Assembly: GCF_963921235.1 (NCBI RefSeq)
Contig: NC_086108.1
Location: 44,766,001 to 44,826,000 of the forward strand
From: Mobula hypostoma
Lineage: Eukaryota
Length of the DNA stretch: 60,000 nt
Reading direction: 5' to 3'
Of the stretch, positions 301 through 60,000 are shown piece after piece. The position numbers and the translations under genes were made by a program. The notes below the pieces were generated by a model. That model worked only from the letters and a program-made list of their open reading frames with translations, was not told the DNA's origin and made no database searches. Position 1 is the first letter of the stretch; every line of letters begins with the position of its first letter.

Positions 301-3300
301 TGACAGTCCCGCCATCCCGGGAATTAACCTTGTGAACCTACGCTGCACTCCCTCAATAGCAAGAATGTCCTTCCTCAAAGTTGGAGACCAAAACTGCACA
401 CAGTACTCCAGGTGTGGTCTCACCAGGGCCCTGTACAGCTGCAGAAGGACCTCTTTGCTCTTATACTCAAATCCCCTTGTTATGAAGGCCAGCATGCCAT
501 TAGCTTTCTTCACAGCCTGCTGTACTTGCATGCTTGCTTTCAGCCATGTATTCAACCTGAGCCTGAGGCTCCGGAGGGTTCCTGTACTGTGGAAGATGTC
601 CTGCCTCGTCCCTGTGCCGAAGACGCCGCGCCCCAGTGGCCTCAATGACTACAGACCGGTGGCATTGACCTCCCACATCATGAAGACCCTGGAGAGACTT
701 GTTCTGGAGCTGCTCCGGCCTATGGTGAGGCCACACTTGGATCCCCTCCAGTTCGCCTACCAGCCCCGACTAGGAGTTGAGGATGCCATCGTCTACCTGC
801 TGAACCGTGTCTATGCCCACCTGGACAAGCCAGCAGGTACTGTGAGGGTCATGTTTTTTGACTTCTCCAGTGCGTTCAACACCATCCGCCCTGCTCTGCT
901 GGGGGAGAAGCTGACAGCGATGCAGGTGGATGCTTCCCTGGTGTCATGGATTCTTGATTACCTGACTGGCAGACCACAGTATGTGTGCTTGCAACACTGT
1001 GTGTCCGACAGAGTGATCAGCAGCACTGGGGCTCCACAGGGGACTGTCTTGTCTCCCTTTCTCTTCACCATTTACACCTCGGACTTCAACTAATGCACAG
1101 AGTCTTGTCATCTTCAGAAGTTTTCGGATGACTCTGCCATAGTTGAATGCATCAGCAAGGGAGATGAGGCTGAGTACAGGGCTACGGTAGGAAATTTTGT
1201 CACATGGTGTGAGCAGAATTATCTGCAGCTTCATGTGAAAAAGACTAAGGAGCTGGTGGTGGACCTGAGGAGAGCTAAAGTACCGGTGACCCCTGTTTCC
1301 ATCCAGGGGGTCAGTGTGGACATGGTGGAGGATTACAAATACCTGGGGGTACGAATTGACAATAAACTGAACTGGTCAAAGAACACGGAGGCTGTCTACA
1401 AGAAGTGTCAGAGCTGTCTCTATTTCCTGAGGAGACAGAAGTCCTTTAACATCTGCCGAACGATGCTGAGGATGTTCTACGCGTCTGTGGTGGCCAGTGC
1501 TATCATGTTTGCTGTTTTGTGCTGGGGCAGCAGGCTGAGGGTAGCAGACACCAACAGAATCAACAAACTCATTCGTAAGGCCAGTGATGTTGTGGGGATG
1601 GAACTGGACTCTCTCACGGTGGTGTCTGAAAAGAGGATGCTGTCTAAGTTGCATGTCATCTTGGACAATGTCTCCCATCCACTAGATAATGTACTGGGTG
1701 GACACAGGAGTACATTCAGCCAGAGACTCATTCCACTGAGATGCAACACAGAACGTCATAGGAAGTCATTCCTGTCTGTGGCCATCAAACTTTACAACTC
1801 CTTCCTTGGAGGATCAGACACCCTGAGCCAATAGGCTGGTCCTGGACTTATTTCATAATTTACTGGCATAATTTACAGATTACTATTTAACTATTTATGG
1901 TTTTCTTACTATTTATGGTGCAACTGTAACGAAAACTAATTTCCCCCGGGATCAATAAAGTATGACTATGACTATGTGACTGATGTACAAGAACACCCAG
2001 ATCTCATTGTACTTCTCCTTTTCATAACTTGACTCCATTTAGATAATAATTTGCCTTTCTGTTCTTACCACCAAAGTGGATAACCTCACGTTTATCCACA
2101 TTAAACTGCATCTGCCATACATCTGCCCACTCACCCAGCCTGTCCAAGTCAGCCTGCATTCTCATCACATCCTCCTCATATTTCACACTGCCACCCAGCT
2201 TTGTGTCATCAGCAAATTTGCTAATGTTACTTTTAATTCCCTCATCTAAATCATTAATATATATTGTAAACAGCTGCAGTCTCAGCACTGAACCTTGCGG
2301 TACCCCACTGGTCACCACCTGCCATTCCGAAAGGGACCCATTAATCGCTACTCTTTGTTTTCTGTCAGCCAGCCAATTTTCAATCCATGTCAGTACTCTG
2401 ACCCCAATACCATGTGCCCTAACTTTGCCCACTAATCTCCTATATGGGACTTTATCAAAGGCTTTCTGAAAGTCCAGGTACACTACATCCACTGGCTCTC
2501 CCTTGTCCATTTTCATAGTTACATCCTCAAAAAACTCCAGAAGATTAGTCAAGCACGATTTCTCCTTCGTAAATCCATGCTGACTCGGACCGATCCTGTT
2601 ACTGCTATCCAGATGTGTTGTAATTTCATCTTTTATAATTGACTCCAGCATCTTTCCCACCACTGACGTCAGGCTAACCGGTCTATAATTCCCTGTTTTC
2701 TCTCTTCCTCCCTTCTTGAAGAGAGGGACAACATTAGCCTCCACGATTTCTAAAGCCACCTCCTTAAGTACCCTGGGATGCAGACCATCAGGTTCCGGGG
2801 ACTTATCAGCCTTCAGACCCAACAGTCCATCCAACACCATTTCCTGCCTAATATAAATTTCCTTCAGTTCCTCCATTACCCTAGGTCCTTGGCCACTATT
2901 ATATCTGGGAGATTGTTTGTGTCTTCCCTAGTGATGACAGATCCAAAGTACCTGTTCAACTCGTCTGTCATTTCCTTGTTTCCCATAATAAATTCACCCG
3001 TTTCTGTCTTCAAGGGCCCAGTTTTGGTCTTAACTATTTTTTTCCTTTTCACATACTAAAGAAGCTTTTACTATCCTCCTTTATATTCTTGGCTAGTTTA
3101 CTTTCGTACCTCATTTTTTCTCTGCGTATTGCCTTTTTAGTTACCTTCTGTTGCTCTTTAAAAGTTTCCCAATCTTCCGGCTTCCCACTCATCTTTGCTA
3201 TGTTATACTTCATCTCTTCTATTTTTATACTGTCCATTATTTCCCTTGTCAGCCACGGCCTCCCCTTAGGATCTTTCTTCCTCTTTGGAACGAACTGATC

Positions 3301-3710
3301 CTGCACCTTCCGCATTATTCCCAGAAACACTTGCCATTGCTGTTCCACTGTCATCCATGCTAGGGTATTGTTCCATTGAACTTTGGCCAGCTCCTCCCTC
3401 ATAGCGCCATAGTTCCCTTTGTTCAACTGTAATACTGACACTTCCGAGTTTCCCTTCTCCCTTTCAAATTGTAGATTAAAACTTATCATATTATGGTCAC
3501 TAACTCCTAATGGCTGCTTTACCTCGAGGTCCCTGATCAAATCCGGTTCATTCCACAACACTAAATCTAGAATTGCGTTCTCTCTGATAGGCTCCAGTAC
3601 AAACTGTTCTAAGAATCCATCTCGGAGGGACTCCACAAACTCTCTTTCTTGGAGTCCAGCACCAACCTGATTCCTCCAGTCTACCTGCATGTTGAAATCC
3701 CCCATAACAA
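301..3710 (-). mobile_element. Degenerate CR1 LINE ORF2 (endonuclease end, RT, C-terminus) interrupted by a Rex1-like element
   Basis: ORFs 3049-3705 (GDFN, SDHN), 2022-2876 (YLDFQKAFDKV, GVPQGS, KFADD) and 157-645 (LVRPHLEYCVQFWSP); host sequence continues across 543/1977. Confidence 0.9.
544..1976 (+). mobile_element. 5'-truncated Rex1/Babar-type non-LTR retrotransposon
   Basis: RT motifs DYRPVALTSHIMK, DFSSAFNTI, GAPQGTVLSPFLF; in-frame stop at ~1091; 3' end gggatcaataaagt plus (atgact)n tail. Confidence 0.85.
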
Positions 3711-4988
3711 ATGTAGCATTACCTTGTATAGCAGCATTGCATCAAAAATTACTATGTTACAATAAAAAAACATGGAACAGTTCAAAGCAGGAATAGTGAG
3801 CGACTGTTCATGGGTTTCTGGAGAACTCAGAAATCTGGTAACCGAGGGGAAGAAGCTGTTCCTAAATGTTGGGTGTGCCTCCTCCCTGACAGTAGTAATG
3901 AAGAAAGGGCATGTCCCAGATGGCGAAGGTCCGTAATGATAAATGCTGACTTGTTGAGTCATCCTTTTCCAGATAACCTTGATGATGGGGGCTTGAACCC
4001 GTGATGGAGCTGGCTGAGTCTACAACATTTGATCCTCAGAATCAGGTTTAATACTACTGGCATATGTTGAAAAATTTGTTATTTTGTGGCAGCACTACAT
4101 TGCAATATATAACTATAAATTACAATAAGTAAACATTAAAAAAAAACTAATTAAGTAGCAGAAAAAGAGAGGGGGAGATATTGAGTTAGCTTCATTGGTT
4201 TATTGTCCGTTCAGAAATCTGAAGGCAGAGGGGAAGAAGTTGTTTCTGAAACAATGAGTGCATGTCTTCAAGCTCCTGTACCACCTCCTTGATGTTGGCA
4301 ACAAGGAGAGGGCATGTCCTGGCTGATGCTGCTCCTTAATGATAGATGCTACCTTTTGAAGGTGTCCTGGATGCTGGGGAGGCTAATGAGAGGGAGGTAC
4401 TTTTGAAGCTTCTTCACTTGTACTGAGATGATTGTGTTTAATGCTGAGCTGCAATCAGTAAACAACAGCCCAACATACCTATTGCTGTTGTCCACGTGGT
4501 TTAAAGCCAAGTGTAAAGTCAATAAGTTTGCATCCACTGTAGACCTGCCATAGTGCTAGGCAAATTGCAATAGGTTCAGGTCCTTGCTCAGGCAGGAGGT
4601 AACTCTAGCCATGATTAACCTTACAAAGCTCTTCAACTCAGATTTTTCTGAAACCACAGCCATGTGCGCTATTTGTCGTATGTGTGTGTGCTGTTGATGA
4701 TTTGTTTTGCACCTTGGCTACAGAGGAACGCTGTTTCATTTGTCTATATTTGTGTATGCTTGAATAATAAGTAAACTTGAACTTGTCTGCTACCAGATGA
4801 TTTTTTTTTTAACAATGAAAAGACTATTTTACCCAGATTTCTACATGTGCGCGATTTGGTTTAGTTGAAGAAAGCTTTTAACACATAGTCCTTAACTGAA
4901 AATTAGCTTTCTTGTATTTTTCATCGTGGATGGCAAGTAATTTCAAATCCTCCAAAATAACAAGTTTCAGTTCGATTTCCTATTCCAG

Positions 4989-5057
4989 TCCGCAGGCTTA
5001 GTATCGAGAAAAGTTCAGAAAAGGATCCTGTGGACTTTGAACCTTTAGCTAAAAGTG
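4989..5057 (+). CDS. IFT25: Intraflagellar transport protein 25 (HSPB11), internal exon (69 nt)
   Basis: ttccag|..|gtaagg; reads (V)RRLSIEKSSEKDPVDFEPLAKS, resembling human VQTLKIEKSTSKEPVDFE. Confidence 0.88.
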
Positions 5058-5170
5058 GTAAGGGCATTCAATAAACCTTTTTATTAAGTCATTAGAGTTA
5101 CGAGAATAAATTGTTCTGTCCAATTCACCTGGTAGGTTTCATCTTTTGGTGATTTATTTTGTCTAAACAG

Positions 5171-5214
5171 AACTTGAACATGCTGAGGAACAGCTTCAAT
5201 TAGAAGAATTTGCT
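5171..5214 (+). CDS. IFT25: IFT25 internal exon (44 nt)
   Basis: aaacag|..|gtaagt; (E)LEHAEEQLQLEEFA versus human DLVHTEGQLQNEEIV; phases fit both neighbouring exons. Confidence 0.88.
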
Positions 5215-6331
5215 GTAAGTATTTTTTCAAGTTGCCATATTGCTCAATGTAGAATGATTATAGATCAGGAGTTCAACAGAGAAGAAATGAGCTGTATCAA
5301 CCTCAGATAACTTCCCTTTAGGCACAACCATTCAGGTTACTGTTGTCACAGGATATGAAATTATAGGGGGTGGAGTTGATTTGCATGCAAGAGAATAGAT
5401 TACAGAGAAATAAGTTCAGAACGGGACTGATAGGAATGCTTTGACATCATAAACTCATGAGCTGAATGACTTGCGTTTTTCAAGAAAATATGAGAAGCTT
5501 ATAATAAAAAATTATAGCTCTCCCAGTGGTAGAAAGTGTAGTTTGAAGAATGCTGTACTGTGATGTTATTAATGAAATGTTACACTGTGTTGTAATGGCT
5601 GTTGAATGGTTCAGAACAATTTGAGCAAGATCTACTCCTCACCAAGATGGGAAGCACATTACAACAAAGATCCCAAAATCTAATAAAATACAAATGACCC
5701 CCCCCCACCCCAAAACTTTGTGGCTGTTTGGGTAATATAAATTACTAGCTGAAAGTTTGAGATACAGGGTAAAAGAATAAAATACACTCTTAGAGAATAA
5801 GAAAGGTAAATAAACAAATGTATTTACAGTTTTATCTATCTCTTGTTTCTTGACATACACAGATAAAGTGGCTTTATTTTATGGAAATATATTTCCATTC
5901 CTTAGTAATACAGGGGTACAAAAGTTGAAATGCAAAATATTTAATTGAAATACTGTTATTACATTAATTTATAGGCTCTTTCTCTCAAAACCAATTTGGT
6001 TTTACTCTCTTATGAAAGGGTGGATTTTGCTGTGCACCAGTATTCAGAATCTAGCTTCTTTTACAATAATTTGAGATAGTCAACTTTGAAATTTGTTTTT
6101 ACCCTGAACGTGAATTTTCCAGTATAGTTCAATAGACTGTAACATGAACTCCTGGCAGCATGCACTTACCCAGATACCCAACCAGATTGTTGTTTCTTTT
6201 GTTATACTAGTTGTAACAAACTAACTGAACATAGAAAAGGGCTCATATGTAGTTTTCTCCACTCGACTGTTAAGCTACTGGTGAAGCAGCATTTTATTTT
6301 AAAGTGAATTAAAGAAATCTTTTCTTTGCAG

Positions 6332-6439
6332 CTGGATGGAACAAGGGCGACACATCTACGATTTGTTATTAAATCAGCTTTTGACCATTTTGTATCAGTA
6401 CACAAAGTGACAGTAGAAGGTACAGAGGAAATCACTTAA
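6332..6439 (+). CDS. IFT25: IFT25 last coding exon
   Basis: tttgcag| LDGTRATHLRFVIKSAFDHFVSVHKVTVEGTEEIT*, resembling human ATYLRFIIVSAFDHFASVHSVSAEG; synteny with DIO1. The 5' exons are not in the window. Confidence 0.92.
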   Translation: MDGTRATHLRFVIKSAFDHFVSVHKVTVEGTEEIT

Positions 6440-6537
6440 GTCCATAGAACACAACTGTGAACTTTGTAAAGGGAAGATTGAATTGTGAAGTCCAGGTTTG
6501 TTAAGCAATTAATGTTATGTACATTCTTATTCTTCTG

Positions 6538-6543
6538 AATAAA
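6538..6543 (+). terminator. IFT25: Candidate IFT25 polyadenylation signal AATAAA
   Basis: First AATAAA after the stop, about 100 nt downstream. Confidence 0.6.
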
Positions 6544-6568
6544 CTCATGGCTTTGTAACATTACAGCC

Positions 6569-6574
6569 TTTATT
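6569..6574 (-). terminator. DIO1: Candidate DIO1 copy A polyadenylation signal (another at 6642-6647)
   Basis: TTTATT on + strand, downstream of the SECIS in the DIO1 direction. Confidence 0.45.
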
Positions 6575-6808
6575 GGTCATTCTGGAAAATATTTGATCAA
6601 AATCCGAATGGTGCATTGAAACATTTTCAAAGTGAAGATACTTTATTTCAAAATTGTTTCAACTCATCAGAATGGATTGTAACAGCTTTATAATAATTCA
6701 GATATAATAAAAAAAATTCACTCCTTTTAAATACATAGATATGCAAAGTATGTGTGGAATAATTGTTTAATAGTCCAGAATCAAAAAAACTTCATCCACA
6801 GATTTAAA

Positions 6809-6888
6809 TGATCTTAGCCATATTTCACAACATTAGACTACAGCCTTAATTTTGGCTGCAATCTTCATAAATAACATAGCTAAAATCA
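6809..6888 (-). promoter_or_regulatory. DIO1: SECIS-like hairpin of DIO1 copy A (form 1 geometry, non-canonical AUGA/UAAU core)
   Basis: Minus strand: TGATTTTAGCTATGTT-ATTT-ATGAA-GATTGCAGCC-AAAATTAA-GGCTGTAGTC-TAAT-GTTGTGA-AATATGGCTAAGATCA; 16-bp helix I, 10-bp helix II, apical AAA. Confidence 0.85.
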
Positions 6889-8178
6889 TTACACCCCAGT
6901 GGTTGACGTTCCAAATTCGTTAAATTCTAAGTGAAGCAGAATAATTGTTATGATTGGGTTTTTAAATTCTAGAAATTTGAAAAATGGATGGAAAAGAAGC
7001 AGGAAGATAAGATTTGTTAACATGAGAAATTGGCATGGATTTCTGGAAAGGAAGTCATCTGATCAATGTACTAGATTACACTGCAAAATTGTTTAAAATA
7101 AAAAAAAAGTAAAAATAGTGGAAAGCCAATGAATGTGCTGTACATGAATTTTCAGATAACTTTACACTCTAACCTTTGCCTTTAAAAACTAAAGAGCATG
7201 ATTATTAGAATAATGGCATGATCAAAAATTGGTTGACAAGTGTCACAATTGGAATAAAATGACTGGCAATAATAATTATAAATAGCACCATAATCAGTAT
7301 TTGGGCCTTAGCTCTTCACAATATATCAATGATTTAGATGAGGGAAGAAATTTAATTACCTGAAGTTTGACAATAATATAAAATTTAGTGGAATTGAGTT
7401 GCAAGGAGGCTCGAGGTGATTTAGAGTTTGAACAAGTGCACAAAGAATTGGCAGATGCATGCAACATTCATAATTGTTGTGCACTTTAGTAGGAGAAAAT
7501 GGTGGTGAATTATTTGAATTATGTGGTAAATAGTAAGCATTCTTGTATTCCACATACTGAAAGCAAAATCCAGATGTTGTAAAGTGTACTTGGGTTTAGC
7601 ATTGGGGATGCTAAACCCAAGTTTAGCACCCAAGTGTGGGGGGCGGTGGGACCCAAACAGCACATACAGGAGGGGTGAGGGGAGGGTAGGGCTGGAAAGG
7701 GGAAAGGAGACAAAGTAGTAGGGTTTCCTTTGCTTTTTGCTTGTTTACTATGCATACATTCATTTGACTTTCATTACGTTGTTATAAGAAAAAAGCAGCA
7801 TTGTACTTTAAGCTGATGTTGCTTCACAATAAAAACATTTGAAAACAGGAATCCGTTCTTTTTCATTTGTTAGTATTGTGAAATTGAATGTTTCAGAAAG
7901 CAGTAATTTATCAAGCATTTCCCACCACCAGCCCTAACTGAAAATTTTCAGTTTAAACTTTTAGTAATTAGTACAATTTATATTAAAACATAAAATACAA
8001 AGTTACCTTTCCTTATTTTCAAACCATCATATCCCAGTCATAGCAATTCAAACTGAGAAAATTATCAAGATGGAAATGAAAACTACTCAGATCAATTTAC
8101 AATTAGGCTTGATCATATGAAAAAGTCAAAGAAACCTTTCTCAGATTATACCAGTACTGAAAACTGCCAACATGTGGT

Positions 8179-8244
8179 TTAACTTTGGTTTTGCAAAATT
8201 AATCGTACTTCTTCTGGTTTGTATCCTGAAGGTCCTACGTCGCC
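8179..8244 (-). CDS. DIO1: Type I iodothyronine deiodinase copy A, exon 4 coding part
   Basis: tttcag| GDVGPSGYKPEEVRLILQNQS*; compare human GKSGPWNYNPEEVRAVL. Confidence 0.92.
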   Translation of the reverse strand, partial: GDVGPSGYKPEEVRLILQNQS

Positions 8245-8694
8245 CTGAAATACATGTAAATATATAGTTATGAGAAATTAAGCACCATTGCTTTCAGAGA
8301 TTGACAGTGTTTTGATCTGCCTTGTCTGATTCATACCTGTGACAGATCAATTTGTTTCACTCTTCTCTTCAGTAACATTTTACTCCATGATTACTGCTAG
8401 AAACACAAGACGTCTTTGAGTCTGTAACCCTAAAGTTCCATTTTATGACAAATTAATGGAAAACAATGGCAATTTAATGTGCTGGGTGGGTGGGGGGGGG
8501 TTGTGGTGGTGGGGTTAAGGTTCCAGTACCTATTAAGTGCTCCTAATGGTTTGCGTCAACTAAGTCCAGCTCCTTGCCTTCATGTGTGGCTTAGCTACTA
8601 AGCTGGGTGGAACACTTTCTACTGGCAAGAGAAGGGGCAAAAGTGGGTTAACTGGTGCCTTAAAACCAGTCGCTCTGGGCAGATAGGGCTCACA

Positions 8695-9810
8695 GAAATA
8701 TAGAAAACCTACTGCACAATACAGGCCCTTCGGCCCACAAAGTTGCGCTGAACATGTCCCTACCTTAGAAATTACTAGGCTTACCCATAGCCCTCTATTT
8801 TTCCAAGCTCCATGTACCTATCCAAAATTCTCTTAAAAGACCCCATCTTCTCTGCCTCCATCACCATTGCCAGCAGCCCATTCCACACATTCACCATTCT
8901 CTGCATTAAAAAGCTTACCCCTGACATCTCTGTACCTACTTCCCAGCACCTTAAACCTGTGTACTCTTGTGGCAACCATCTCAGCCCTGCGAAAAAGCCT
9001 CTGACTATCCAGACAATCAATGCCTCTCATCATCTTATACACCTCTATCAGGTAACCTCTCATCCTCTGTCACTCCAAGGAGAAAAGGCCAAGCTCACTC
9101 AACCTGTTTTCATAAGGCATGCTCCCCAATCCAGGCAACATCCTTGTAAATCTCCTCTGCACCTTTTCCATGGTTTCCACATCCTTCCTGCAGTGAGGCG
9201 ACCAGAACTGAGCACAGTACTCCAAGTGGGGTCTGACCAGGGTCTTACAAAGCTGCAACATTACCTCTCGGCTCTTAAGCTCAATCCCACAATTGATGAA
9301 GGCCAATGCACCGGATGCCTTCTTAATCACAGGGTCAACCTGCGCAGCTGCTTTGAGCGTCCTATAGACTCAGACCCCAAGATCACTCTGATCCTCCACA
9401 CTGCCAAGAGTCTTACCATTAATACTATATTCTGCCATCATATTTGACCTACCAAAGTGAACCACCTCATTATCTGGGTTGAACTCCATCTGCCACTTCT
9501 CAGCCCAGTTTTGCATCCTATCAATATCCCGCTGTAACCTCTGACAGCCCTCCACACTATCCACAACACCTCCAACCTTTGTGTCATCAGCAAACTTACT
9601 AATCCATCCCTCCACCTCCTCATCCAGGTTCTTTATAAAAATCACGAAGAGTAGGGGTCCCAGAACAGATCCCTGAGGGACGCCACTGGTCACCGACTTC
9701 CATGCAGAATATGACCCGTCTGCAACCACTGTTTGCCTTCTGTGGGCAAGCCAGTTCTGGATCCACAAAGCAACGTCCCCTTGGATCCCATGCCTCCTTA
9801 CTTTTGAGCA
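8695..9810 (-). mobile_element. 5'-truncated CR1 LINE in DIO1-A intron 3
   Basis: ORFs with GVPQGSVLGP, KFADDTK, LVRPHLEYCAQFWSP. Confidence 0.85.
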
Positions 9811-10299
9811 TGGCTTGTTACCCATGGTTAGCATCCCACCTAGGAGGAAATCTCTGATCGCAAACCGCCTGTCTTGTGGCAATACCCACTCACGGGGAAG
9901 GCTTCAGGAGTAAATCCCAAAGAAAAATCAGAGGCTGGGGTCCCTAATTGACTGGCAGTTCCTGAGATGCAGCTGGTGTCAAGCTGTATCAGTTTCTGCC
10001 ATTCCTTTGGATTCATCAGCTGCATGGAGAGGGGGAGCTGCTGCATGGGCAACAGCTTGCTCTCCATATTGTACTGTCCTGGCTTGTGTATCATGTAGAC
10101 AGCTAGGATGCAACATCCATGGTCGGCCTCACTCGCTGTAGATTCATTGTGTCAATAGCATCAACAACATGTAAAAACCAGTTATTCAAAACGATTTTGA
10201 AATAGTATCCTGCTATTTGGTACAGTTTTCTTTAAATTTGAGCAAGTTAATTCTACTGGTAAACTTGGATTGAAAAGTCAAAAACGCATTTACAGGACC

Positions 10300-11720
10300 A
10301 CATGACACAGGAGCAGAATTAGGCCATTAAGTCCATTGAGTCTGCTCCAGCATCCCATCTTGGCTGATTTATTATCCCTCTGAGCCCCATTCTCCTGTTC
10401 TTTCCCTGTAACCTTTGATATCCCTACCATTCAAGAACCTATCAAACTCTGCTTTAAATATACAAAGTGATTTGGCCTCCACAGCCATATGAAGCAACAA
10501 AATTCCAGTTTCACCACTTGCTGGCTAATGAACTTCCTCCGCATCTCCGTTCCAAAGGGACAATGTCCTATTCTGAGGCTGTGCCCTCTAGGTACTAAAG
10601 TCCCCCAATACAAGATACATTCTACCCAGTTCCACTCTATCTGGGCCTTTTAATATTTGATAGGTTTCAATGAGATCTCCCCCCTCATTCTTTTAAAATC
10701 CAGTTCACCACATTTTTTGATAATTGTTTGGAAACCATTGATTTTATTTTCCCCCTCATCTTTCTCATATTTACACAATCTTCCCTTTTCAGTTTTTCCA
10801 TTCAATCACAAAAGACATGCGCAAAATGTAAAATTCCATGTTTACATTTTCCCAATTTAGAAAGCTCAATTGTGAATTTACTCAACTGTGCTATTTTAGT
10901 CTTGCCAACTTCTGGCACCATGCCAAGTCCCAAGACCCTCTCTTACCTTGCTTACATCCTCCTTTAATCAGAGCGAAAACACAATCAATTGAGATGCAAA
11001 GGGACTTGGGAGTCCTTGTGCAGGATTCCCTAAAGGTTAATTTGCAGGTCAAGTCTGGTGAGCAAGGCAAATGTGATGTTAGCATTCATTTCAAGAGGAC
11101 TAGAATACAAAAGCAAAGATGCAGTGTTGAAGCTTTATAAAGCATTGATGAAGCCTCACTTAAAGTATTGTGAGCAGGTTTGGGCCCCTTATCTTAGAAA
11201 GGATGTGCTGAAACTTGAGAGTTCGAAGGAGGTTCACGAAAATGATTCCAGGAGTGAACTCTCAAACTCAGTGTCTGATGGCTGTGGGCCTGTATTCACT
11301 GGAATTCAGAAGAACAGCGTGGAGGGGAGGGAGGTGACCTCATTGAAACCTATCAAATAGGTGGAAAGGCCTTGACAGAGTGATGTGGAGAGGATGTTTC
11401 CTATGGTGGGAGAGTCTTAAGACCAGAGAACACAACCGCAGAATAGAGGGGCAACCTTTTAGAACAGAGATGAGGAATTGCTTTAGCCAGAGGGTGGTGA
11501 ATCTGTGGAATTATTTGCCACAGGCTGCTGTAGAGGGCATCTTTATGTATTTTTAAGGCAGAGGTTGATAGATTCTTAATTGGTCAGAGCATGAAGGGAT
11601 ACAGGGAGAAGATAGGAGATTAGGGCCAAGAGGAAAAGTGGATCAGCCATGATGAAATGGCAGAGCAAACTCAATGGGCCAGATGGCCTAATTCTGCTCC
11701 TATATCTTACAGTCTTATCA
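10300..11720. mobile_element. Old CR1 3'-end fragments in both orientations
   Basis: RGHSLRI and KANVMLAFISRGLEYKSKD remnants; CR1-like 3' UTR gcctaattctgctcctat. Confidence 0.7.
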
Positions 11721-11980
11721 ATTTTTAAAAATTTAATTAATTTGCTTATTTATTGACATACAGTGCAGAGTAGGCCTTCTGGCCCTTTGAGCCATGCCAT
11801 CCAGCAATCCCCCAATTTAATCCTATCCCAATCATGGGACAATTTACAATGTCCGATTACTCTACCAACTGGTACATCCTTGAACCACACAGTATGGGAA
11901 GAACATAGAAACTCCTTGCAAGCAGAGTGGGAATGTCATGGATAAAAACCAGACTTTTTAGGTTTGAAATTTATTTTCAT

Positions 11981-12220
11981 TAGGGGCAGCACAGTGGCTT
12001 AGAGTTTAGTGCAACACTGTTATAGTGCCGATGATATGGGTTCACTTCCTGCTGCCGTCTGCAAGGAGTTTGTACGTTCTCCCCGTGACCATATAGGTTT
12101 CCTCCCACATTCCGAAGATGTGGCCAATTAACCACCCAACTCGTACATGGGTGTTACTGTGCAGTGCGGGTTGTTGGGCAGAAGGGCCTATTACCGTGCT
12201 GTATCTCTAAATAAATAATT
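11981..12220 (+). mobile_element. tRNA-derived V-SINE-like element (copy at ~58000-58240)
   Basis: A/B-box-like head, gtttgtacgttctccccgtgacc...ggtttcctcccacattcc core, (taaa)n tail. Confidence 0.65.
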
Positions 12221-12408
12221 TAGCTTATCTAGTATTAACCAACTCCCTCAGGAACAGGTAAGGTACAAATTAGAGTGCATTAGCCTTTGCATTGTACTTG
12301 GGTAGAAACAAAATGTCTGATAAAAGACTAGCAGTGAAGCTACTGATTTGGAATTAAGGATGGATTTAACATACAAAGTAACGTTTGAGTGTCAGGATAC
12401 TCAGTTAC

Positions 12409-12608
12409 CTTGTAAATGATTTTGCCATTGAGCACCACGTACAGTCTCTCTGGCATGGCTCCATATTTAGCACAAGTCATATTATCCATAGAGTCAACTA
12501 CAATTGGACAGGGAGGCTCCTCTTTTAGCAAGATCCTTGCTGCATTGATACGATCATTTAATGTTTGATGTTTTTTAATATCCACATTGTTCTTGAATGC
12601 CCAGACAT
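12409..12608 (-). CDS. DIO1: DIO1 copy A exon 3 (200 nt)
   Basis: tttcag|AT GTC TGG ... TAC AAG|gtaact; [24 protein letters not shown]...[10 protein letters not shown]...YGAMPERLY. Confidence 0.96.
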
Positions 12609-19894: not shown

Positions 19895-20044
<150 letters not shown>

Positions 20045-49500: not shown

Positions 49501-50659
49501 CAGAAATCTGGTAACTGAGGGGAAGAAGCCGTTCCTAAACGTTGAGTGTGCCTCCTCCCTGACAGTAGTAATGAAGAAAGGGCATGTCCCAGATGGCGAA
49601 GGTCCGTAATGATAAATGCTGACTTGTTGAGTCATCCTTTTCCAGATAACCTTGATGATGGGGGCTTGAGCCCGTGATGGAGCTGGCTGAGTCTACAACA
49701 TTTGATCCTCAGAATCAGGTTTAATATTACTGGCATATGTTGAAAAATTTGTTATTTTGTGGCAGCACTACATTGCAATATATAACTATAAATTACAATA
49801 AGTAAACATTAAAAAAAAACTAATTAAGTAGCAGAAAAAGAGAGGGGGAGATATTGAGTTAGCTTCATTGGTTTATTGTCCGTTCAGAAATCTGAAGGCA
49901 GAGGGGAAGAAGTTGTTTCTGAAACAATGAGTGCATGTCTTCAAGCTCCTGTACCACCTCCTTGATGTTGGCAACGAGAAGAGGGCATGTCCTGGCTGAC
50001 GCTGCTCCTTAATGATAGATGCTACCTTTTGAAGGTGTCCTGGATGCTGGGGAGGCTAATGAGAGGGAGGTACTTTTGAAGCTTCTTCACTTGTACTGAG
50101 ATGATTGTGTTTAATGCTGAGCTGTAATCAGTAAACAACAGCCCAACATACCTATTGCTGTTATCCACATGGTTTAAAGCCAAGTGTAAAGTCAATAAGT
50201 TTGCATCCACTGTAGACCTGCCATAGTGCTAGGCAAATTGCAATAGGTTCAGGTCCTTGCTCAGGCAGGAGGTAACTCTAGCCATGATTAACCTTACAAA
50301 GCTCTTCAACTCAGATTTTTCTGAAACCACAGCCATGTGCGCTATTTGTCGTATGTGTGTGTGCTGTTGATGATTTGTTTTGCACCTTGGCTACAGAGGA
50401 ACGCTGTTTCATTTGCCTATATTTGTGTATGCTTGAATAATAAGTAAACTTGAACTTGTCTGCTACCAGATGATTTTTTTTTACAATGAAAAGACTATTT
50501 TACCCAGATTTCTACATGTGTGTGGTTTGGTTTAGTTGGAGAAAGCTTTTAACACACAGTCCTTAACTGAAAATTAGCTTTCTTGTATTTTTCATCGTGG
50601 ATGGCAAGTAATTTCAAATCCTCCAAAATAACAAGTTTCAGTTCGATTTCCTAATCCAG

Positions 50660-52119
50660 TCCGCAGGCTTGGTATCGAGAAAAGTTCAGAAAAGGATCCT
50701 GTAGACTTTGAACCTTCAGCTAAAAGTGGTAAGGGCATTCAATAAACCTTTTTATTAAGTCATTAGAGTTACGAGAATAAATTGTTCTTTCCAATTCACC
50801 TGGTAGGTTTCATCTTTTGGTGATTTATTTTGTCTAAACAGAACTTGAACATGCTGAGGAACAGCTTCAATTAGAAGAATTTGCTGTAAGTACTTTTTCA
50901 AGTTACCATATTGCTCAATATGGAATGATTATAGATCAGTTCAACAGAGAAGAAATGAGCTGTGTCAACCTCAGATAACTTCCCTTTAGGCACAACCATT
51001 CAGGTTACTGTTGTGGCAAGATATGAAATTATAGGGGGTGGAGTTGATTTGCATGCAAGGGAGAATAGGTTACAGAGAAATAAGTTCAGAACGGGACTGA
51101 CAGGAGTGCTTTGACATCATAAACTCATGAGCTGAATGACTTGCATTTTTCAAGAAAATATGAGAAGCTTATAATAAAAAAACTATAGCTTTCCCAGTGG
51201 TAGAAAGTGTAGTTTGAAGAATGTTATACTGTGATGTTATTAATGAAATGTTACACTGTGTTGTAATGGCTGTTGAATGGTTCAGAACAATTTGAGCAAG
51301 ATCTACTCCTCACCAAGATGGGAAGCACATTACAACAAAGATCCCAAAATCTAATAAAATACAAATGACCCCCCCCCCACCCCAACTCAAAACTTTGTGG
51401 CTGTTTGGGTAATATAAATTACTAGCTGAAAATTTGAGAAACAGGGTAAAAGAATAAAATATACTCTTGGAGAACAAGAAGAAAGGTAAATAAACAAATG
51501 TATTTACATTTTTATCTATCCCTTGTTTCTTGACATACATTTTCATAAAATAAAGCCACTATCTGTGTAATTCCATCCCTCAGTAATACAGGGGTACAAG
51601 AGTTGAAATGCAAAATATTTAACTGAAATACTGCTGTGACATTAACTTATAGGTTTTTTCTCTCAAAACCAATTTGGTTTTACTCTCTTATGAAAGGGTG
51701 GGTTTTGCTGTGCATCAGTATTCAGAATCTAGCTTCTTTTACAATAATTTGAGATAGTCAACTTTGAAATTTGTTTTTACCCTGAACGTGAATTTTCCAG
51801 TATAGTTCAATAGACTGTAACATGAACTCCTGGCAGCATGCACTTACCCAGATACCCAACCAGATTGTTGTTTCTTTTGTTATACTAGTTGTAACAAACT
51901 AACTGAACATAGAAAAGGGCTCATATGCAGTTTTCTTCACTCGACTGTTAAGCTACTGGTGAAGCAGCATTTTATTTTAAAGTGAATTAAAGAAATCTTT
52001 TCTTTGCAGCTGGATGGAACAAGGGCGACACATGTAGGATTTGTTATTAAATCAGCTTTTGACCATTTTGACCATCAGTACACAAAGTGACAGTAGAAGG
52101 TACAGAGGAAATCACTTAA
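50660..52119 (+). pseudogene. IFT25: IFT25 3' fragment pseudogene; exons 50660-50728, 50842-50885, 52010-52119
   Basis: No 5' exons between it and the junction; net +2 frameshift (ttttgtatcag to ttttgaccatcag) gives TGA at 52088-52090; S>G, L>S and LR>VG substitutions. Confidence 0.9.
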
Positions 52120-52489
52120 GTCCATAGAACACAACTGTTAACTTTGTAAAGGGGAAGATTGAATTGTGAAGTCCAGGTTTGTTAAGCAATTAATGTTATG
52201 TACATTCTTATTCTTCTGAATAAACTCATGGCTTTGCAACATTACAGCCTTTATTGGTCATTCTGGAAAATATTTGATCAAAATCCAAATGGTGCATTGA
52301 AACATTTTCAAACTGAAGATACTTTATTTCAAAATTGTTTCAACTCATCAGAATGGATTGAAACAGCTTTATAATAATTCAGATATAATTAAAAAATTTC
52401 ACTCCTTTTAAATACACAGATATGCAAAGTATGTGTAGAATAATTGTTTAATAGTCCAGAATAAAAAAAACTTCATCCACAGATTTAAA

Positions 52490-52569
52490 TGATCTTAGCC
52501 ATATTTCACAACATTAGACTACAGCCTTAATTTTGGCTGCAATCTTCATAAATAACATAGCTAAAATCA
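52490..52569 (-). promoter_or_regulatory. DIO1: SECIS-like hairpin of DIO1 copy B
   Basis: Identical to 6809-6888, including the UAAU 3' core. Confidence 0.85.
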
Positions 52570-53866
52570 TTACACCCCTAGTGGTTGACGTTCCAAACTT
52601 GTTAAATGCTAAGTGAAGCAGAATAATCGTTATGATTGGGTTTTTAAATTCTAGAAATTTGAAAAAATGGATGGAAAAGAAGCAGGAAAATAAGATTTGT
52701 TAACATGAGAAATTGGCATGGATTTCTGGAAAGGAAGTCATCTGATCAATGTACTAGATTACACTGCAAAATTGTTTAAAATAAAAAAAAGTAAAAATAG
52801 TGGAAAGCCAATGGATGTGCTGTACATGAATTTTCAGATAACTTTACACTCTAACCTTTGCCTTTAAAAACTAAAGAGCATGATTATTAGAATAATGGCA
52901 TGATCAAAAATTGGTTGACAAGTGTCACAATTGGAATAAAATGACTGGCAATAATAATTATAAATAGCACCATAATCAGTATTTGGGCCTTAGCTCTTCA
53001 CAATATATCAATGATTTAGATGAGGGAAGAAATTTAATTACCTGAAGTTTGACATTAATATAAAATTTAGTGGAATTGAGTTGCAAGGAGGCTCGAGGTG
53101 ATTTAGAGTTTGAACAAGTGCACAAAGAATTGGCAGATGCATGCAACATTCATAATTGTTGTCCACTTTAGTAGGAGAGAATGGTGGTGAATTATTTGAA
53201 TTATGTGGTAAATGGTAAGCATTCTTGTGTTCCACATACTGAAAGCAAAACCCAGGTGTTGTAAAGTGTACTTGGGTTTAGCATTGGGGATGCTAAACCC
53301 AAGTTTAGCACCCAAGTGTGGGGGGCGGTGGGACCCAAACAGCACATACAGGAGGGGTGAGGGGAGGGTAGGGCTGGGAAGGGGAAAGGAGACAAAGTGG
53401 TAGGGTTTCCTTTGCTTTTTGCTTGTTTACTATGTATACATTCATTTGACTTTCATTATGTTGTTATAAAAGAAAAAAAGCAGCATTGTACTTTAAGCTG
53501 ATGTTGCTTCACAATAAAAACATTTGAAAACAGGAATCCGTTCTTTTTCATTTGTTAGTATTGTGAAATTGAATGTTTCAGAAAGCAGTAATTTATCAAG
53601 CATATCCCACCACCAGCCCTAACTGAAAATTTCATTTAAACTTTTAGTAATTAGTACAATTTATATTAAAACATAAAATACAAAGTTACCTGTCCTCATT
53701 TTCAAACCATCATATCCCAGTCATAGCAATTCAAACTGAGAAAATTATCAAGATGAAAATGAAAACTACTCAGATCAATATACAATTAGGCTTGATCATA
53801 TGAAAAAGTCAAAGAAAGCTTTCTCAGTAGATTATACCAGTACTGAAAACTCTGCCAACATGTGGT

Positions 53867-53932
53867 TTAACTTTGGTTTTGCAAAATTAATCGTACTTCT
53901 TCTGGTTTGTATCCCCAAGGTCCCACGTCACC
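53867..53932 (-). CDS. DIO1: DIO1 copy B exon 4 coding part
   Basis: tttcag| GDVGPWGYKPEEVRLILQNQS*. Confidence 0.92.
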   Translation of the reverse strand, partial: GDVGPWGYKPEEVRLILQNQS

Positions 53933-54972
53933 CTGAAATACATGTAAATATATAGTTATGAGAAATTAAGCACCATTGCTTTCAGAGATTGACAGTGTTT
54001 TGATCTGCCTTGTCTGATTCATACCTGTGACAGATCAATTTGTCTCACTCTTCTCTTCAGTAACATTTTACTCCGTGATTACTGCTAGAAACACAAGACA
54101 TCTTTGAGTCTGTAACCCTAAAGTTCCATTTTATGACAAATTAATGGAAAATAATGGCAATTTAATGTGCTGGGTGGGCAGGGGGTTGTGGTGGTGGGGT
54201 TAAGGTTCCAGTACCTATTAAATGCTCCTAATGGTTTGCGTCCCAAATAGTGTCTGACAACTAAGTCCAGCTCCTTGCCTTCATGTGTGGCTTAGCTACT
54301 AAGCTGGGTGGAACACTTTCTACTGGCAAGAGAAAGGGCAAAAGTGGGTTACTGGTGCCTTAAAACCAGTCGCTCTGGGCAGAAAGGGCTCATAGAAATA
54401 TAGAAAACCTACTGCACAATGCAGGCCCTTCGGCCCACAAAGTTGTGCTGAACATGTCCCTACCTTAGAAATTACTAGGCTTACCAATAGCCCTCTATTT
54501 TTCCAAGCTCCATGTACCTATCCAAAAGTCTCTTAAAAGACCCTATCGTATCTGCCTCCATCACCATTGCCAGCAGCCCATTCCACGCATTCACCATTCT
54601 CTGCATTACAAAAAAAACTTACCCCGACATCTCCCCTGTACCTACTCTCCAGCACCTGAAACCTGTGTCCTCTTGTGGCAACTATCTCAGCCCTGCGAAA
54701 AAGCCTCTGACAATCTGCACAATCAATGGCTCTCATCATCTTATACACCTCTAACAGGTAACCTCTCATCCTCCGTCACTCCGAGGAGAAAAGGCCAAGC
54801 TCACTCAACCTGTTGTCATAAGGCATGCTCCCCAATCCAGGCAACATCCTTGTAAATCTCCTCTGCACCCTTTCCATGGTTTCCACATCCTTCCTGTAGT
54901 GAGGCGACCAGATCTGAGCACAATACTCCAAGTGGGGTCTGACCAGGGTCCTATATAGGCTGCAACATTACC

Positions 54973-55608
54973 ATAGAAACCATAACCATAGAAACTACAG
55001 CACAGAAACAGGCCTTTTGGCCTTTCTTGGCTGTGCCAAACCATTTTCTGCCTAGTCCCACTGACCTGCACACGGACCATATCCCTCCATACACCTCCCA
55101 TCCATGTATCTGTCCAATTTATTCTTAAGTGTTAAAAAAAATCGGCATTTACCACCTCATCTGGCAGCTCATTCCATACTCCCACCACTCTGTGTGAAGA
55201 AGCCCCCCCTAATGTTCCCTTTAAACTTCTCCCCCCTCACCCTAAACCCATGTCCTCTGGTGTTTTTCTCCCCTTGCCTCAGTGGAAAAAACCTGCTTGC
55301 ACTCACTCTATCTATACCCATCATAATTTTATATACCTCTATCAAATCTCCCCTCATTCTTCTACACTCCAGGGAATAAAGTCCTAACCTTTTCAACCTT
55401 TCTCTGTAACTGAGTTTCTCAAGTCCCGGCAACATCCTTATAAACCTTCTCTGCACTCTTTCAACCTTATTTATATCCTTCCTGTAATTTGGTGACCAAA
55501 ACTGAACACAATACTCCAGATTCGGCCTCACCAATGCCTTATACAAACTCATCATAACATTCCAGCTCATACTCGATTCTTTGATTAATAAAGGCCCATG
55601 TACCAAAA
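54973..55608 (-). mobile_element. Copy-B-specific CR1-type 3' insertion with attacc target duplication
   Basis: attacc at 54967-54972 and 55609-55614; absent at the matching site (~9260) in copy A; ORF 55169-55606. Confidence 0.85.
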
Positions 55609-58426
55609 ATTACCTCTCGGCTCTTAAGCTCAATCCCAGAATTGATGAAGGCCAATGCACCGGATGCCTTCTTAACCACAGGGTCAACCTGTGCAGCTGC
55701 TTTGAGCGTCCTATAGACTCAGACCCCAAGATCACTCTGATCCTCCACACTGCCAAGAGTCTTACCATTAATACTATATTCTGCCATCATATTTGACCTA
55801 CCAAAGTGAACCACCTCATTATCTGGGTTGAACTCCATCTGCCACTTCTCAGCCCAGTTTTGCGTCCTATCAATGTCCCGCTGTAACCTCTGACAGCCCT
55901 CCACACTATCCACAACACCTCCAACCTTTGTGTCATCAGCAAACTTACTAATCCATCCCTCCACCTCCTCATCCAGGTTCTTTATAAAAATCACGAAGAG
56001 TAGGGGTCCCAGAACAGATCCCTGAGGGACGCCACTGGTCACCGACTTCCACGCAGAATATGACCCGTCTGCAACCACTGTTTGCCTTCTGTGGGCAAGC
56101 CAGTTCTGGATCCACAAAGCAACGTCCCCTTGGATCCCATGCCTCCTTACTTTTGAGCATGGCTTGTTACCCATGGTTAGCATCCCACCTAGGAGGAAAT
56201 CTCTGATCTCAAACCGCCTGTCTTGTGGCAATACCCACTCACGGGGAAGGCTTCAGGAGTAAACCCCAAAGAAAAATCAGAGGCTGGGGTCCCTAATTGA
56301 CTGGCAGTTCCTGAGATGCAGCTGGTGTCAAGCTGTATCAGTTTCTGCCATTCCTTTGGATTCATCAGCTGCATGGAGAGGGGGAGCTGCTGCATGGGCA
56401 ACAGCTTGCTCTCCATATTGTACTGTCCTGGCTTGTGTATCATATAGACAGGTAGGATGCAACATCCATGGTCGGCCTCACTCGCTGTAGATTCATTGTG
56501 TCAATAGCATCAACAACATGTAAAAACCAGTTATTCAAAACGATTTTGAAATAGTATCCTGCTATTTGGTACAGTTTTCTTTAAATTTGAGCAAGTTAAT
56601 TCTACTGGTAAACTTGGATTGAAAAGTCAAAAACGCATTTACAGGACCACATGACACAGGAGCAGAATTAGGCCATTAAGTCCATTGAGTCTGCTCCAGC
56701 ATCCCATCTTGGCTGATTTATTATCCCTCTGAGCCCCATTCTCCTGTTCTTTCCCTGTAACCTTTGATATCCCTACCATTCAAGAACCTATCAAACTCTG
56801 CTTTAAATATACAAAGTGATTTGGCCTCCACAGCCATATGAAGCAACAAAATTCCAGTTTCACCACTTGCTGGTGAAAGAACTTCCTCCTCATCTCTGTT
56901 CCAAAGGGACAATCTTCTATTCTGAGGCTGTGCCCTCGAGGTACTAAAGTCCCCCAATACAAGATACATTCTCCCCAGTTCCACTCTATCTGGGCCTTTT
57001 AATATTCGATAGGTTTCAATGAGATCTCCCCCATCATTCTTTTAAAATCCAGTTCACCACATTTTTTGGAAACCATTGATTTTATTTTCCCCCTCATCCT
57101 TCTCATATTTACACAATCTTTCCTTTTGAGTTTTTCTATTCAATCACAAAAGACATGCGCAAAATGTAAAATTCCATGTTTACATTTTCCCAATTTAGAA
57201 AGCTCAATTGTGAATTTACTCAACTGTGCTATTTTAGTCTTGCCAACTTCTGGCACCATGCCAAGTCCCAAGACCCTCCCTTACCTTGCTTACATCCTCC
57301 TCTAATCAGAGAGAAAACACAATCAATTGAGATGTAAAGGGACTTGGAAGTCCTTGTGCAGGATTCCCTAAAGGTAAATTTGCAGGTCGAGTCTGATGAG
57401 CAAGGCAAATGCGATATTAGCATTCATTTCAAGTGGACAAGAATACAAAAGCAAAGATGCAGTGTTGAAGCTTTATAAAGCAGTGATGAAGCCTCACTTA
57501 AAGTATTGAGAGCAGGTTTGGGCCCCTTATCTTAGAAAGGATGTGCTGAAACTTGAGCGTTCAAAGGAGGTTCACGGAAATGATTCCAGGATTGAACTCT
57601 CAAACTCAGTGTCTGATGGCTGTGGGCTTGTATTCACTGGAATTCAGAAGGAAAAGTGGATCAGCCATGATGAAATGGCAGAGCAAACTCAATGGGCCAA
57701 ATGGCCTAATTCTGCTCCTATATCTTACAGTCTTATCAATTTTTTAAAATTTAATTAATTTGCTTGTTTATTGACATAGTGCGGACTAGGCCTTCTGGCC
57801 CTTTGAGCCATGCCATCCAGCAATCCCCCAATTTAATCCTATCCTAATCATGGGACAATTTACAATGTCCAATTACCCTACCAACTGGTACATCCTTGAA
57901 CCACACGATATGGGAAGAACATAGAAACTCCTTGCAAGCAGCAGTGGGAATGTCATGGATAAAAACCAGACTTTTTAGGTTTGAAATTTATTTTCATTAG
58001 GGGCAGCACAGTGGCTTAGAGTTTAGTGCAACACTGTTATAGTGCTGGTGATATGGGTTCACTTCCTGCTGCCATCTTGCAAGGAGTTTGTACGTTCTCC
58101 CCGTGACCATATAGGTTTCCTCCCACATTCCGAAGATGTGGCCAATTAACCACCCAACTCGTACATGGGTGTTACTGTGCAGTGCGGGTTGTTGGGCAGA
58201 AGGGCCTATTACCGTGCTGTATCTCTAAATAAATAATTTAGCTTATCTAGTATTAACCAACTCCCTCAGGAACAGGTAAGGTACAAATTAGAGTGCATTA
58301 GCCTTTGCATTGTACTTGGGTAGAAACAAAATGTCTGATAAAAGACTAGCAGTGAAGCTACTGATTTGGAATTAAGGATGGATTTAACATACAAAGTAAC
58401 GTTTGAGTGTCAGGATACTCAGTTAC

Positions 58427-58626
58427 CTTGTAAATGATTTTGCCATTGAGCACCACGTACAGTCTCTCTGGCATGGCTCCATATTTAGCACAAGTCATAT
58501 TATCCATAGAGTCAACTACAATTGGACAGGGAGGCTCCTCTTTTAGCAAGATCCTTGCTGCATTGATACGATCATTTAATGTTTGATGTTTTTTAATATC
58601 CACATTGTTCTTGAATGCCCAGACAT
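58427..58626 (-). CDS. DIO1: DIO1 copy B exon 3 (exons 1-2 would lie beyond the window)
   Basis: Identical to 12409-12608, splice sites intact. Confidence 0.93.
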
Positions 58627-60000
58627 CTGAAACAAACAAGTAATAAAATGAAGTAATCAATATAAAGGACCTCACAAAAATTGTCATTTTTGTTTGGAGA
58701 TAAAAACTGAGATGATTTATAATGAAACATTTGCAAAGATGCTAAATAAATGATTGAAAAGCCAAGGGTATAATTAAGTAAGGTAAAAGATAAAACAGGC
58801 AGTAATAATAGTGAGATAACACAAAACTTGGTTTTACATTTCCACCAGTTAAAGATGTGAGTGAAATCTATAACTAAGAAAGATAATTGTGGTTACAAAT
58901 CTTTTTTTCTAACACTTGAACTAAAGTACAACAGCCATACCTCAGAGCAGTGTCCCCAGCCCAACCATCTTCAACTGCTTCACCTATGACCTCCTTTCTA
59001 TGATATGGTTAATGGAGATGATTGCTGGCAACTGTACGATATTCAATTCCATTTACAACTTCTGTAAATAAAGTAGTTCAGATCTTCATGCAGCAGGACC
59101 TGGACAATGTGCAGGTATGAGTTGATAAGTAGCATTTAACAGTCACACCAAAGTAGCAAGCAATCACCATCTCTATTTGGGAGAATTCAACCATCTACCC
59201 TTGACATTTAATGCAATCACTGTTGCAGGGTTCCACACCATCAACCTTCAAGGGGGACTGACTAAAAACTTAGTTTTTAAGATAAAGTGTGGCTCGAGGA
59301 GCAGCTCAGAGACAGGGGATCTGAGATGCCAAAGCTTCTAAACATCTGCAATGCTCAAATCAAAAGAGCAATGAGATATCTGTTTTGATGCAAGTTCAGT
59401 ATCATCCAGGACAAAGCAAACCACTTAGCTGACATACTACTGGTACCAAAATAGCAGTACGGTGCCATCTGCAGTTACTTGCCTAATCTAACCTGAAAGC
59501 AGCTCCAAAACATATGACCTCTACCACCAAGCTTGACAAGAGTAGCAAGCATATTGAGGACACCACCTGCACGTTCCCCTTTAGGTCACATATCCTACCT
59601 TGGCAGTATATTGAAAAAAAGTCATTTTCAGTATGTCTAAGTACCAGGAACCCATGATCACTAGAATGGCTGGTTCAGGAAGCTGAATATTCTACATCCT
59701 GGCTGGCTGAATCATCTCCTGGTATAATAATTCCAACGCACAGGAATGCAAGAGGCTGCAGGAAGTACTGCCAGCACGAGAGCAACTCTCCCCACCACTG
59801 TAAGCATTTAAATGAAGAGCCACCTCAGAAGCAGCAACTTTCATCAAGGAATCCTCATCACCTGTAACTTGCTGTTACAGTCAAGCAGCAGATACAGAAG
59901 CCATCAGGTTCTTGAACCAATCTGCCAAAACCCTCATCCTACTTCAGCAAAACAGAATTCCTCTTGTACTACCATGGGCTTGCTACTGAGTGTGTGTGTT

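Follow-up and report, generated by a model that had tools for sequence, protein, structure and literature searches.

Has a ray kept two working copies of DIO1, and if so, for what? The question is raised by a 60,000-nucleotide stretch of the Mobula hypostoma genome (hereafter the window; assembly GCF_963921235.1, contig NC_086108.1, positions 44,766,001 to 44,826,000), in which an earlier sequence-only reading had recognized a tandem unit of about 46 kb carrying the selenoenzyme gene DIO1 and its neighbors IFT25 and YIPF1. To our knowledge, DIO1 is treated as single-copy across vertebrates. Here, we find that both DIO1 copies are unbroken and, in presumed RNA runs, transcribed and spliced, while one copy of each neighbor is broken. 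We consider there to be about an even chance that the two DIO1 copies have been kept for extra deiodinase dosage under relaxed constraint. All coordinates are window positions.

Self-alignment of the window yielded collinear, same-strand blocks of 96–99% identity at an offset of ~46 kb (1157-9265/46837-54972, 9257-11312/55606-57650, and 11631-13982/57649-60000). With 100 kb of flanking sequence included on each side, the repeat ran from 1157-46184 against 46837-91856 with no N inside, which bears out the proposed unit. Such collinear copies of unique sequence on the same strand, with one junction, constitute a tandem segmental duplication, here a head-to-tail repeat of 45.7 kb per unit that occupies 1157-46836 and then 46837 to about 92,000. 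The left break falls within a reverse transcriptase frame of long interspersed nuclear element (LINE) type, in intron 2 of IFT25. Because non-LINE sequence precedes the junction and a 7-base word occurs on both of its sides, we infer a join by microhomology, not by unequal crossing-over between two LINE elements. The units and their junction are as follows:

1157..46836, tandem unit A, 45.7 kb; holds IFT25 exons 3-5, DIO1-A, and a YIPF1 pseudogene, and starts within the LINE in IFT25 intron 2
46837..60000, first 13 kb of tandem unit B, which extends to about 92,000; holds DIO1-B exons 3 and 4, with DIO1-B exons 1 and 2 and an intact YIPF1 in the extension
46826..46850, duplication junction; a 5'-cut LINE meets unrelated sequence at 46836/46837
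29453..33305, near-identical tract between the units, with a longest exact run of 1875 bp; covers the last two YIPF1 exons

The two units differ by 1013 substitutions in 37,697 aligned bases (2.7%, or 3.1% without two near-identical tracts) and by 109 indels. The earlier claim of a genuine duplication, with age enough for copies to decay, is borne out. Exact matches within the two tracts reach 1875 bp (31430-33305) and 1298 bp (12061-13359), against roughly 240 bp expected, and would be most simply read as gene conversion. Kilobase segments were also found in one unit only, at 42400-44982, 20526-22114, and 24144-25680, and in unit B at 87314-91157 (these may be mobile-element gains or losses after the duplication). 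An absolute age based on the per-generation rate of an epaulette shark was dropped, since that rate cannot be carried over unless a generation time is available, and the resulting age was implausibly old.

We then examined the DIO1 genes themselves, whose exons are arranged as follows:

16864..17200, minus strand, DIO1-A exon 1; the ancestral donor follows 16870, and a donor specific to copy A follows 16864
14254..14397, minus strand, DIO1-A exon 2; in-frame selenocysteine UGA at 14359-14357
12409..12608, minus strand, DIO1-A exon 3; within the 1.3-kb tract 12061-13359 that is identical between copies
8179..8244, minus strand, DIO1-A exon 4, coding part; Ser231 is TCA at 8229-8227, with Trp in copy B and homologs
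53867..53932, minus strand, DIO1-B exon 4, coding part; Trp231 retained
58427..58626, minus strand, DIO1-B exon 3
60258-60401, beyond the window end, DIO1-B exon 2; open
62993-63323, beyond the window end, DIO1-B exon 1; open

Each copy has four exons, and all eight are open, with AG/GT ends and an in-frame selenocysteine UGA in exon 2. The six exons within the window had been described as open with intact splice sites, and this holds, with the qualification that presumed RNA shows a copy A donor 6 nt deeper into intron 1. Exons 1 and 2 of DIO1-B were expected past the window end and lie there, exon 2 having been predicted at 60270-60415. The neighbors here are IFT25/HSPB11 and YIPF1, in the order known from human. 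Both copies contain the PF00837 deiodinase domain and are closer to DIO1 than to DIO2 or DIO3; a genome-wide PF00837 search returned eight matches, namely three exons of each copy here plus two genes of a single exon apiece on C1, which is where DIO2 and DIO3 are located, away from this pair. Both also read AMPERLY, in which a DIO1-type Pro replaces the Phe that precedes Glu-Arg in Dio2 and Dio3 (a feature taken from PMC11592359), and both share the U-P-P motif of fish enzymes resistant to propylthiouracil (PMC8143656). The ray pair is like vertebrate DIO1 (Pfam PF00837; structurally solved relatives mouse Dio3, 4TR3, and Dio2, 9H48) in its four coding exons, exon 2 UGA, and position between IFT25 and YIPF1, but differs in having two intact tandem copies, a shifted donor and W231S in copy A, P114L in copy B, and a UGA/AA core in the selenocysteine insertion sequence (SECIS). 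In the loop-D region of the deiodinase, at the start of exon 3 (12606 and 58624), the two copies have D-V-W in place of the D-G-W or D-A-W of homologs.

Transcription was assessed from assembled read runs. Of 23 runs, four were placed on 6250-18900: X5, X12, and X10, guessed to be RNA, and X6, guessed to be DNA, with none recorded as RNA. Their contigs give no level, strand, or phase, and contig depth was not used as an expression level. Run X5 contained an 867-nt contig from which all three introns had been spliced, with 14397 joined to 16864 and no other letters over the listed pieces of exons 2 to 4. Run X12 contained an 832-nt spliced contig that used the donor at 16870 and whose exon 2 departed from copy A by two letters and agreed with copy B at the site listed, 14342 (a synonymous difference); in the 3′ untranslated region, this run carried copy B letters at 6556, 6606, 6632, 6716, and 7696. 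Both letters were present at 16940 and 17005 in each of the two runs. As these spliced contigs carry letters of both copies, both DIO1 copies are transcribed and spliced, and the possibility raised earlier that one copy is silent finds no support in these two presumed RNA runs. In the X12 contig, exon 4 is of the A type but is joined to an exon 2 of the B type. A hybrid allele was considered for this contig and is not preferred; with both letter types in the run, we read the contig as a mosaic that assembly produced through exon 3, which is identical in the copies, a choice that contigs cannot settle.

The duplicated neighbors took a different course:

4989..6439, plus strand, intact IFT25/HSPB11 exons 3-5 (4989-5057, 5171-5214, and 6332-6439); open
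50660..52119, plus strand, inner IFT25 fragment, exons 3-5 only; four missense changes and a +2 frameshift at 52071
18669..33384, plus strand, inner YIPF1 pseudogene with seven coding exons left; lesions at 18817, 25949, 28451, and 28501
17736..17737, plus strand, site of a 1.08-kb deletion that removed the YIPF1 start-codon (ATG) exon from unit A
17201..17736, no strand assigned, promoter region shared by DIO1 and YIPF1 in head-to-head arrangement; almost the same sequence in the two units, with a TATA box at 17258

The inner YIPF1 was complete at duplication and has taken five hits since: a 2-bp deletion at 18817, a TTG>TAG change at 25949, a 5-bp deletion at 28451, a 1-bp deletion at 28501, and the loss of the ATG exon. 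At least four disabling lesions had been counted in the sequence-only reading; all four are present, and the exon loss is additional. The intact YIPF1 that was expected beyond the window lies at 64665-76947 and encodes an open frame of 314 aa, whose protein shows 0 differences from Mobula hypostoma YIPF1, compared with 7 for M. birostris and 14-15 for two stingrays. A genome search for the Yip1 family gave no match, the exons being too short, and YIPF1 was identified by homolog search instead; exons of YIPF1 and IFT25, scanned singly, likewise gave no Pfam match. IFT25 was identified by its match to solved IFT25/HSPB11 chains. Its intact copy has five exons encoding 140 aa, all open, with exons 1 and 2 at 2.0-2.6 kb left of the window, and the inner fragment differs from it by four missense changes and one silent change in 221 coding bases, in addition to the frameshift. 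This inner copy was dead at birth. Because the duplication cut it in intron 2, with exons 1 and 2 outside the duplicated unit, it is not a decaying passenger in the sense that YIPF1 is; the frameshift and missense changes reported earlier stand, but the reading of them as ordinary passenger decay does not.

Could the two units instead be two haplotypes that were set in tandem during assembly? Although reads were placed on 6250-18900 and contig depth gives no copy number, we consider such an artefact extremely improbable. The units are separated by the substitution level given above, both with and without the identical tracts, by the 109 indels, and by kilobase indels, whereas diversity is just 0.2% in an epaulette shark (PMC10587355). 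Each supposed haplotype would furthermore be null for a different gene, and run X10, from a second organism (organism B), contains two forms of the last IFT25 exon, one of which has the R>G change at 6359 that is found in the inner copy. Run X6, also from organism B, offers 15 inner ends among its eight listed contigs, of which two, at 17736 and 18817, come within 1-2 bases of the two inner YIPF1 lesions in the stretch covered by reads; the chance of matching these two named sites is about 7e-5, a figure to be read in light of the sites having been picked after seeing the table. A third end lies 30 bases past a 16-bp indel between the units, and the remaining 12 match no such lesion. The duplication is thus probably shared with organism B. 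Over the same 7045 bases, organism B differs from copy A at 129 positions and copy A from copy B at 120, so that distance cannot order the duplication relative to the species split.

Having established that DIO1 is the gene with two unbroken copies, we asked whether selection has kept them so. DIO1-A and DIO1-B differ at 13 codons, by 8 non-synonymous and 7 synonymous steps, with a ratio of non-synonymous to synonymous divergence (pN/pS) of 0.31 (one-sided P = 0.025). The 1482 coding bases of DIO1 contain 0 lesions and the 1135 bases of the dead copies contain 5 (P = 0.015, Fisher test), and pN is low relative to the unit-wide substitution rate of 2.7% (P = 0.03). Derived amino acid changes are symmetric, with five on copy A and four on copy B and neither acceleration nor asymmetry of the sort that neofunctionalization calls for, as expected for shared relaxation and not for innovation in one copy. 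Weighed with the points below, these comparisons give only moderate support to purifying selection on the pair, which would be relaxed and symmetric.

Several points weigh against retention by selection. The Fisher test is inflated, because the dead copies were chosen by their lesions. Unit-wide rates predict only 2.7 lesions over both DIO1 copies, so that finding none has a probability of 0.067, and the comparison of pN with the unit-wide rate falls to P = 0.22 once the converted exon 3 is excluded. The identity of exon 3 is itself no evidence of selection, because the identical tracts cover dead YIPF1 exons as well. The ratio of non-synonymous to synonymous changes, 8:7 in DIO1 against 9:2 in the dead copies, does not differ significantly (P = 0.14), and a spliced copy B exon 4 was not among the rows listed. 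Each copy has also been altered at a conserved site in our 18-row homolog alignment: Pro114, found in 11 of the 11 rows covering the site and in this genome's DIO2 and DIO3, is Leu in copy B, and Trp231, found in 9 of 9 rows covering it, is Ser in copy A (DIO3 has E or D, and DIO2 L or F). The copy A insertion at residue 111 described below occurs in 0 of the 18 rows. Finally, second copies of DIO1 appear to have decayed in bamboo sharks (PMC13134290, supplement).

A neutral account would take these points together: one DIO1 is surplus and has not yet been hit, the shared promoter keeps both copies transcribed, and conversion, which homogenizes dead YIPF1 exons too, repairs parts of them. We regard this as doubtful, if deserving of attention, given the low pN/pS and the contrast in lesions, and given that YIPF1, on the same promoter, took its five hits in the same time. 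Retention of both DIO1 copies for dose therefore remains the reading we prefer. The earlier claim that DIO1 was the gene retained stands insofar as both copies are intact and found in spliced contigs; the evidence for selection is borderline, and each copy has changed an invariant residue.

We next considered whether the copies are beginning to differ in function. Changes were polarized by eye against the stingray entry in the supplement of PMC13134290, using 246-aa numbering. Copy A has derived F66L, N75K, T78I, W231S, and a change at 111; copy B has derived G12S, S65T, N75I, and P114L. The change at 111 is caused by the donor at 16864, which is present in copy A only, was created by one base change at 16863, and lies 6 nt further into intron 1, turning Asp111 into Gly-Leu-Tyr in frame (+2 residues, before beta1). 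A count of U1 matches did not discriminate the two donors (5 vs 5 of 9), and the shift therefore rests on the splice joint seen in run X5. The ancestral donor at 16870 reads GTCTGT, far from consensus, and was used in runs X12 and X10; among the joints listed, run X10 showed the ancestral donor only.

Residue 231 lies three places after the position of Dio3 Arg275 and Dio2 Lys241, in the beta4/alpha3 loop, which forms part of the lining of the proposed substrate crevice (PMC11592359), and it is isoform-specific. With W231S and two added residues, the latter from a donor used in presumed RNA, copy A might bind or position thyronines differently, for example with a shift between deiodinating the inner and the outer ring, how ring selectivity arises being described as not understood (PMC11592359). 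We consider such incipient divergence unlikely. Amino acid change is neither excessive nor asymmetric, the catalytic exon 3 is identical in both copies, and the effect of residue 231 is not addressed in the parts of PMC11592359 consulted. A new substrate for the pair is unsupported, and the suggestion in the sequence-only reading of marine halogenated aromatics finds nothing in its favor, with no sign of non-thyroid substrates.

Both copies would need a SECIS element to be read through as selenoenzymes, and a candidate hairpin was found behind each:

6810..6890, minus strand, SECIS-like hairpin behind DIO1-A; its AUGA core is at 6868, with a helix of 11 bp, AAAA at the apex, and 3' core UAAU (A at 6834, canonically G)
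52491..52571, minus strand, SECIS-like hairpin of DIO1-B; identical to copy A, with the UAAU core and the changed base at 52515

There is one hairpin per DIO1 copy, 1.3 kb behind the stop, with a folding energy of -33.8 kcal/mol (z = -7.5), in a region covered by X5 contigs. The hairpins are identical over 81 nt, as had been noted, with the qualification that the 3' core is UAAU, not KGAW. Compared with eukaryotic SECIS (RF00031), they are alike in the 5' AUGA, the 11-bp helix II (range 11-13 bp), the apical adenines (AA), and the flanking helix, but differ in their UGA/AA core. The SECIS consensus is UGAN/KGAW, with UGA/GA invariable bar one GGA/GA case (PMC3753652, PMC2647825, PMC3316567), and even that case, the one exception given, keeps the 3' GA. 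The noncanonical core in both copies counts against recoding, as does the RF00031 score of 19.4 bits against a gathering cut-off of 35, although the canonical DIO3 control also falls below it at 28.3 bits. An Rfam scan over 1157-14300 gave chance-level matches only and did not list this hairpin either.

It may be, then, that the UGA/AA core recodes poorly, so that the duplication compensates for it or, at the extreme, both copies mostly yield truncated protein. SBP2 binding is described as requiring the G.A/A.G tandem (PMC1874613), this genome has a canonical SECIS in DIO3, and no second, canonical element was found in the 4.3 kb behind either DIO1 stop in a pattern scan. That scan, however, missed the DIO3 SECIS found by Rfam, so real elements can escape it; beyond the UGA, both copies remain open and conserved in sequence; fully spliced contigs exist; and an A.A pair at this kink-turn (k-turn) position is tolerated in other RNAs. 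Specifically, a rare A.A pair at k-turn position 2b.2n allows normal folding and L7Ae binding (PMC3985660), as in the nonstandard Kt-23 of Thelohania solenopsae, which has A at 2n as the ray hairpin appears to when its changed base is mapped to that position. On this analogy, the ray hairpin would still fold, with the reservation that Kt-23 is ribosomal and was tested with L7Ae and not SBP2. We consider a weak or dead SECIS quite improbable. Among the rows listed, organism B showed no change at 6834. A bolder combination, in which the pair comprises two different DIO1 selenoenzymes, one with a remodeled substrate loop, both recoded through UGA/AA SECIS and kept to offset weaker selenocysteine insertion, is possible but rather unlikely.

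Taken in order, our preferred reading would run as follows. A break in the LINE of IFT25 intron 2, joined by microhomology, would have produced a 45.7-kb tandem copy of the 3' half of IFT25, the whole of DIO1, and the whole of YIPF1, at about the time of the split from organism B and common to both. The inner IFT25 and YIPF1 were broken, whereas both DIO1 copies stayed unbroken and spliced, likely kept by selection for dose and not for a new substrate. Selenoenzyme would be produced from both by way of the UGA/AA hairpin, in which the A.A pair would not prevent a kink-turn.

How does this pair compare with known deiodinase duplicates? In the parts consulted of a 2026 vertebrate selenoproteome survey (PMC13134290), duplicates are named only for DIO2 and DIO3. 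These (DIO3b, DIO3a2, DIO2b, DIO2c, and DIO3c) resemble the ray pair as paralogs kept in one lineage, but belong to ray-finned fishes, salmonids, and lampreys, whereas the ray pair is a young DIO1 tandem with 2-3% divergence. The supplement gives one DIO1 for Mobula hypostoma, whose exons and sequence are those of copy B, and the parts examined contain no copy A. Of nine cartilaginous fishes examined there, six have one selenocysteine-type DIO1, one has a broken fragment only, and two bamboo sharks have extra, decayed-looking entries. As copy A of this ray escaped the survey pipeline, a lone entry for another species is weak evidence that it has one copy. In the bamboo sharks Chiloscyllium plagiosum and C. 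punctatum, the second DIO1-like sequence lies 26-31 kb from the first and looks decayed or fragmentary, whereas the ray copies are whole and spliced. The low divergence of the ray copies would point to an independent duplication, and the second bamboo-shark copy suggests that the locus duplicates repeatedly. The earlier proposal of a lineage-specific DIO1 pair accordingly holds for two whole copies in this ray, while tandem copies as such have also arisen, and apparently decayed, in bamboo sharks. A literature search found no DIO1 duplication and nothing for Mobula with deiodinase, most subscription journals lying outside its scope, and protein searches returned no full-length selenocysteine-bearing DIO1, so that the copy number of other rays could not be read from them.

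Several further observations were made at and around the locus. A short way upstream of the TATA box of each DIO1 copy (17272-17285 and 63395-63408) are two GGGTCA half-sites 2 bases apart, which we take to be a nuclear-receptor-like direct repeat. DIO1 poly(A) signals at 6647, 6574, and 6298 (minus strand) lie beside or beyond the IFT25 stop at 6439, and one contig of a presumed RNA run spans 6332-7751; the DIO1 and IFT25 3' ends probably overlap tail to tail. At the YIPF1 3' end (33271-33384 and in unit B), both Mobula YIPF1 proteins extend three residues further at this end than do those of stingrays and other rays. Beyond unit B is a separate 2.8-kb repeat (about 92004-94801/126932-129688, 97% identity), in which no DIO1, YIPF1, or IFT25 exons were found and which is probably a mobile element, and ~90 kb left of the window is a 1.2-kb array of a 31-bp unit.

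The retention of tandem paralogs is itself a known process; what is unreported is the DIO1 pair, its splice-donor shift, and the UGA/AA SECIS. If the pair reflects ordinary redundancy, it is a well-documented but ordinary young duplication. As an expressed, nearly isogenic pair with eight differing positions, it is a natural test of the DIO1-specific Trp in the substrate loop. The UGA/AA hairpin, which SECIS finders requiring GA-AG would discard, makes the rule of an invariant GA/GA core testable, and if two selenoenzymes are indeed made through it, the ray would hold a natural exception to that rule.

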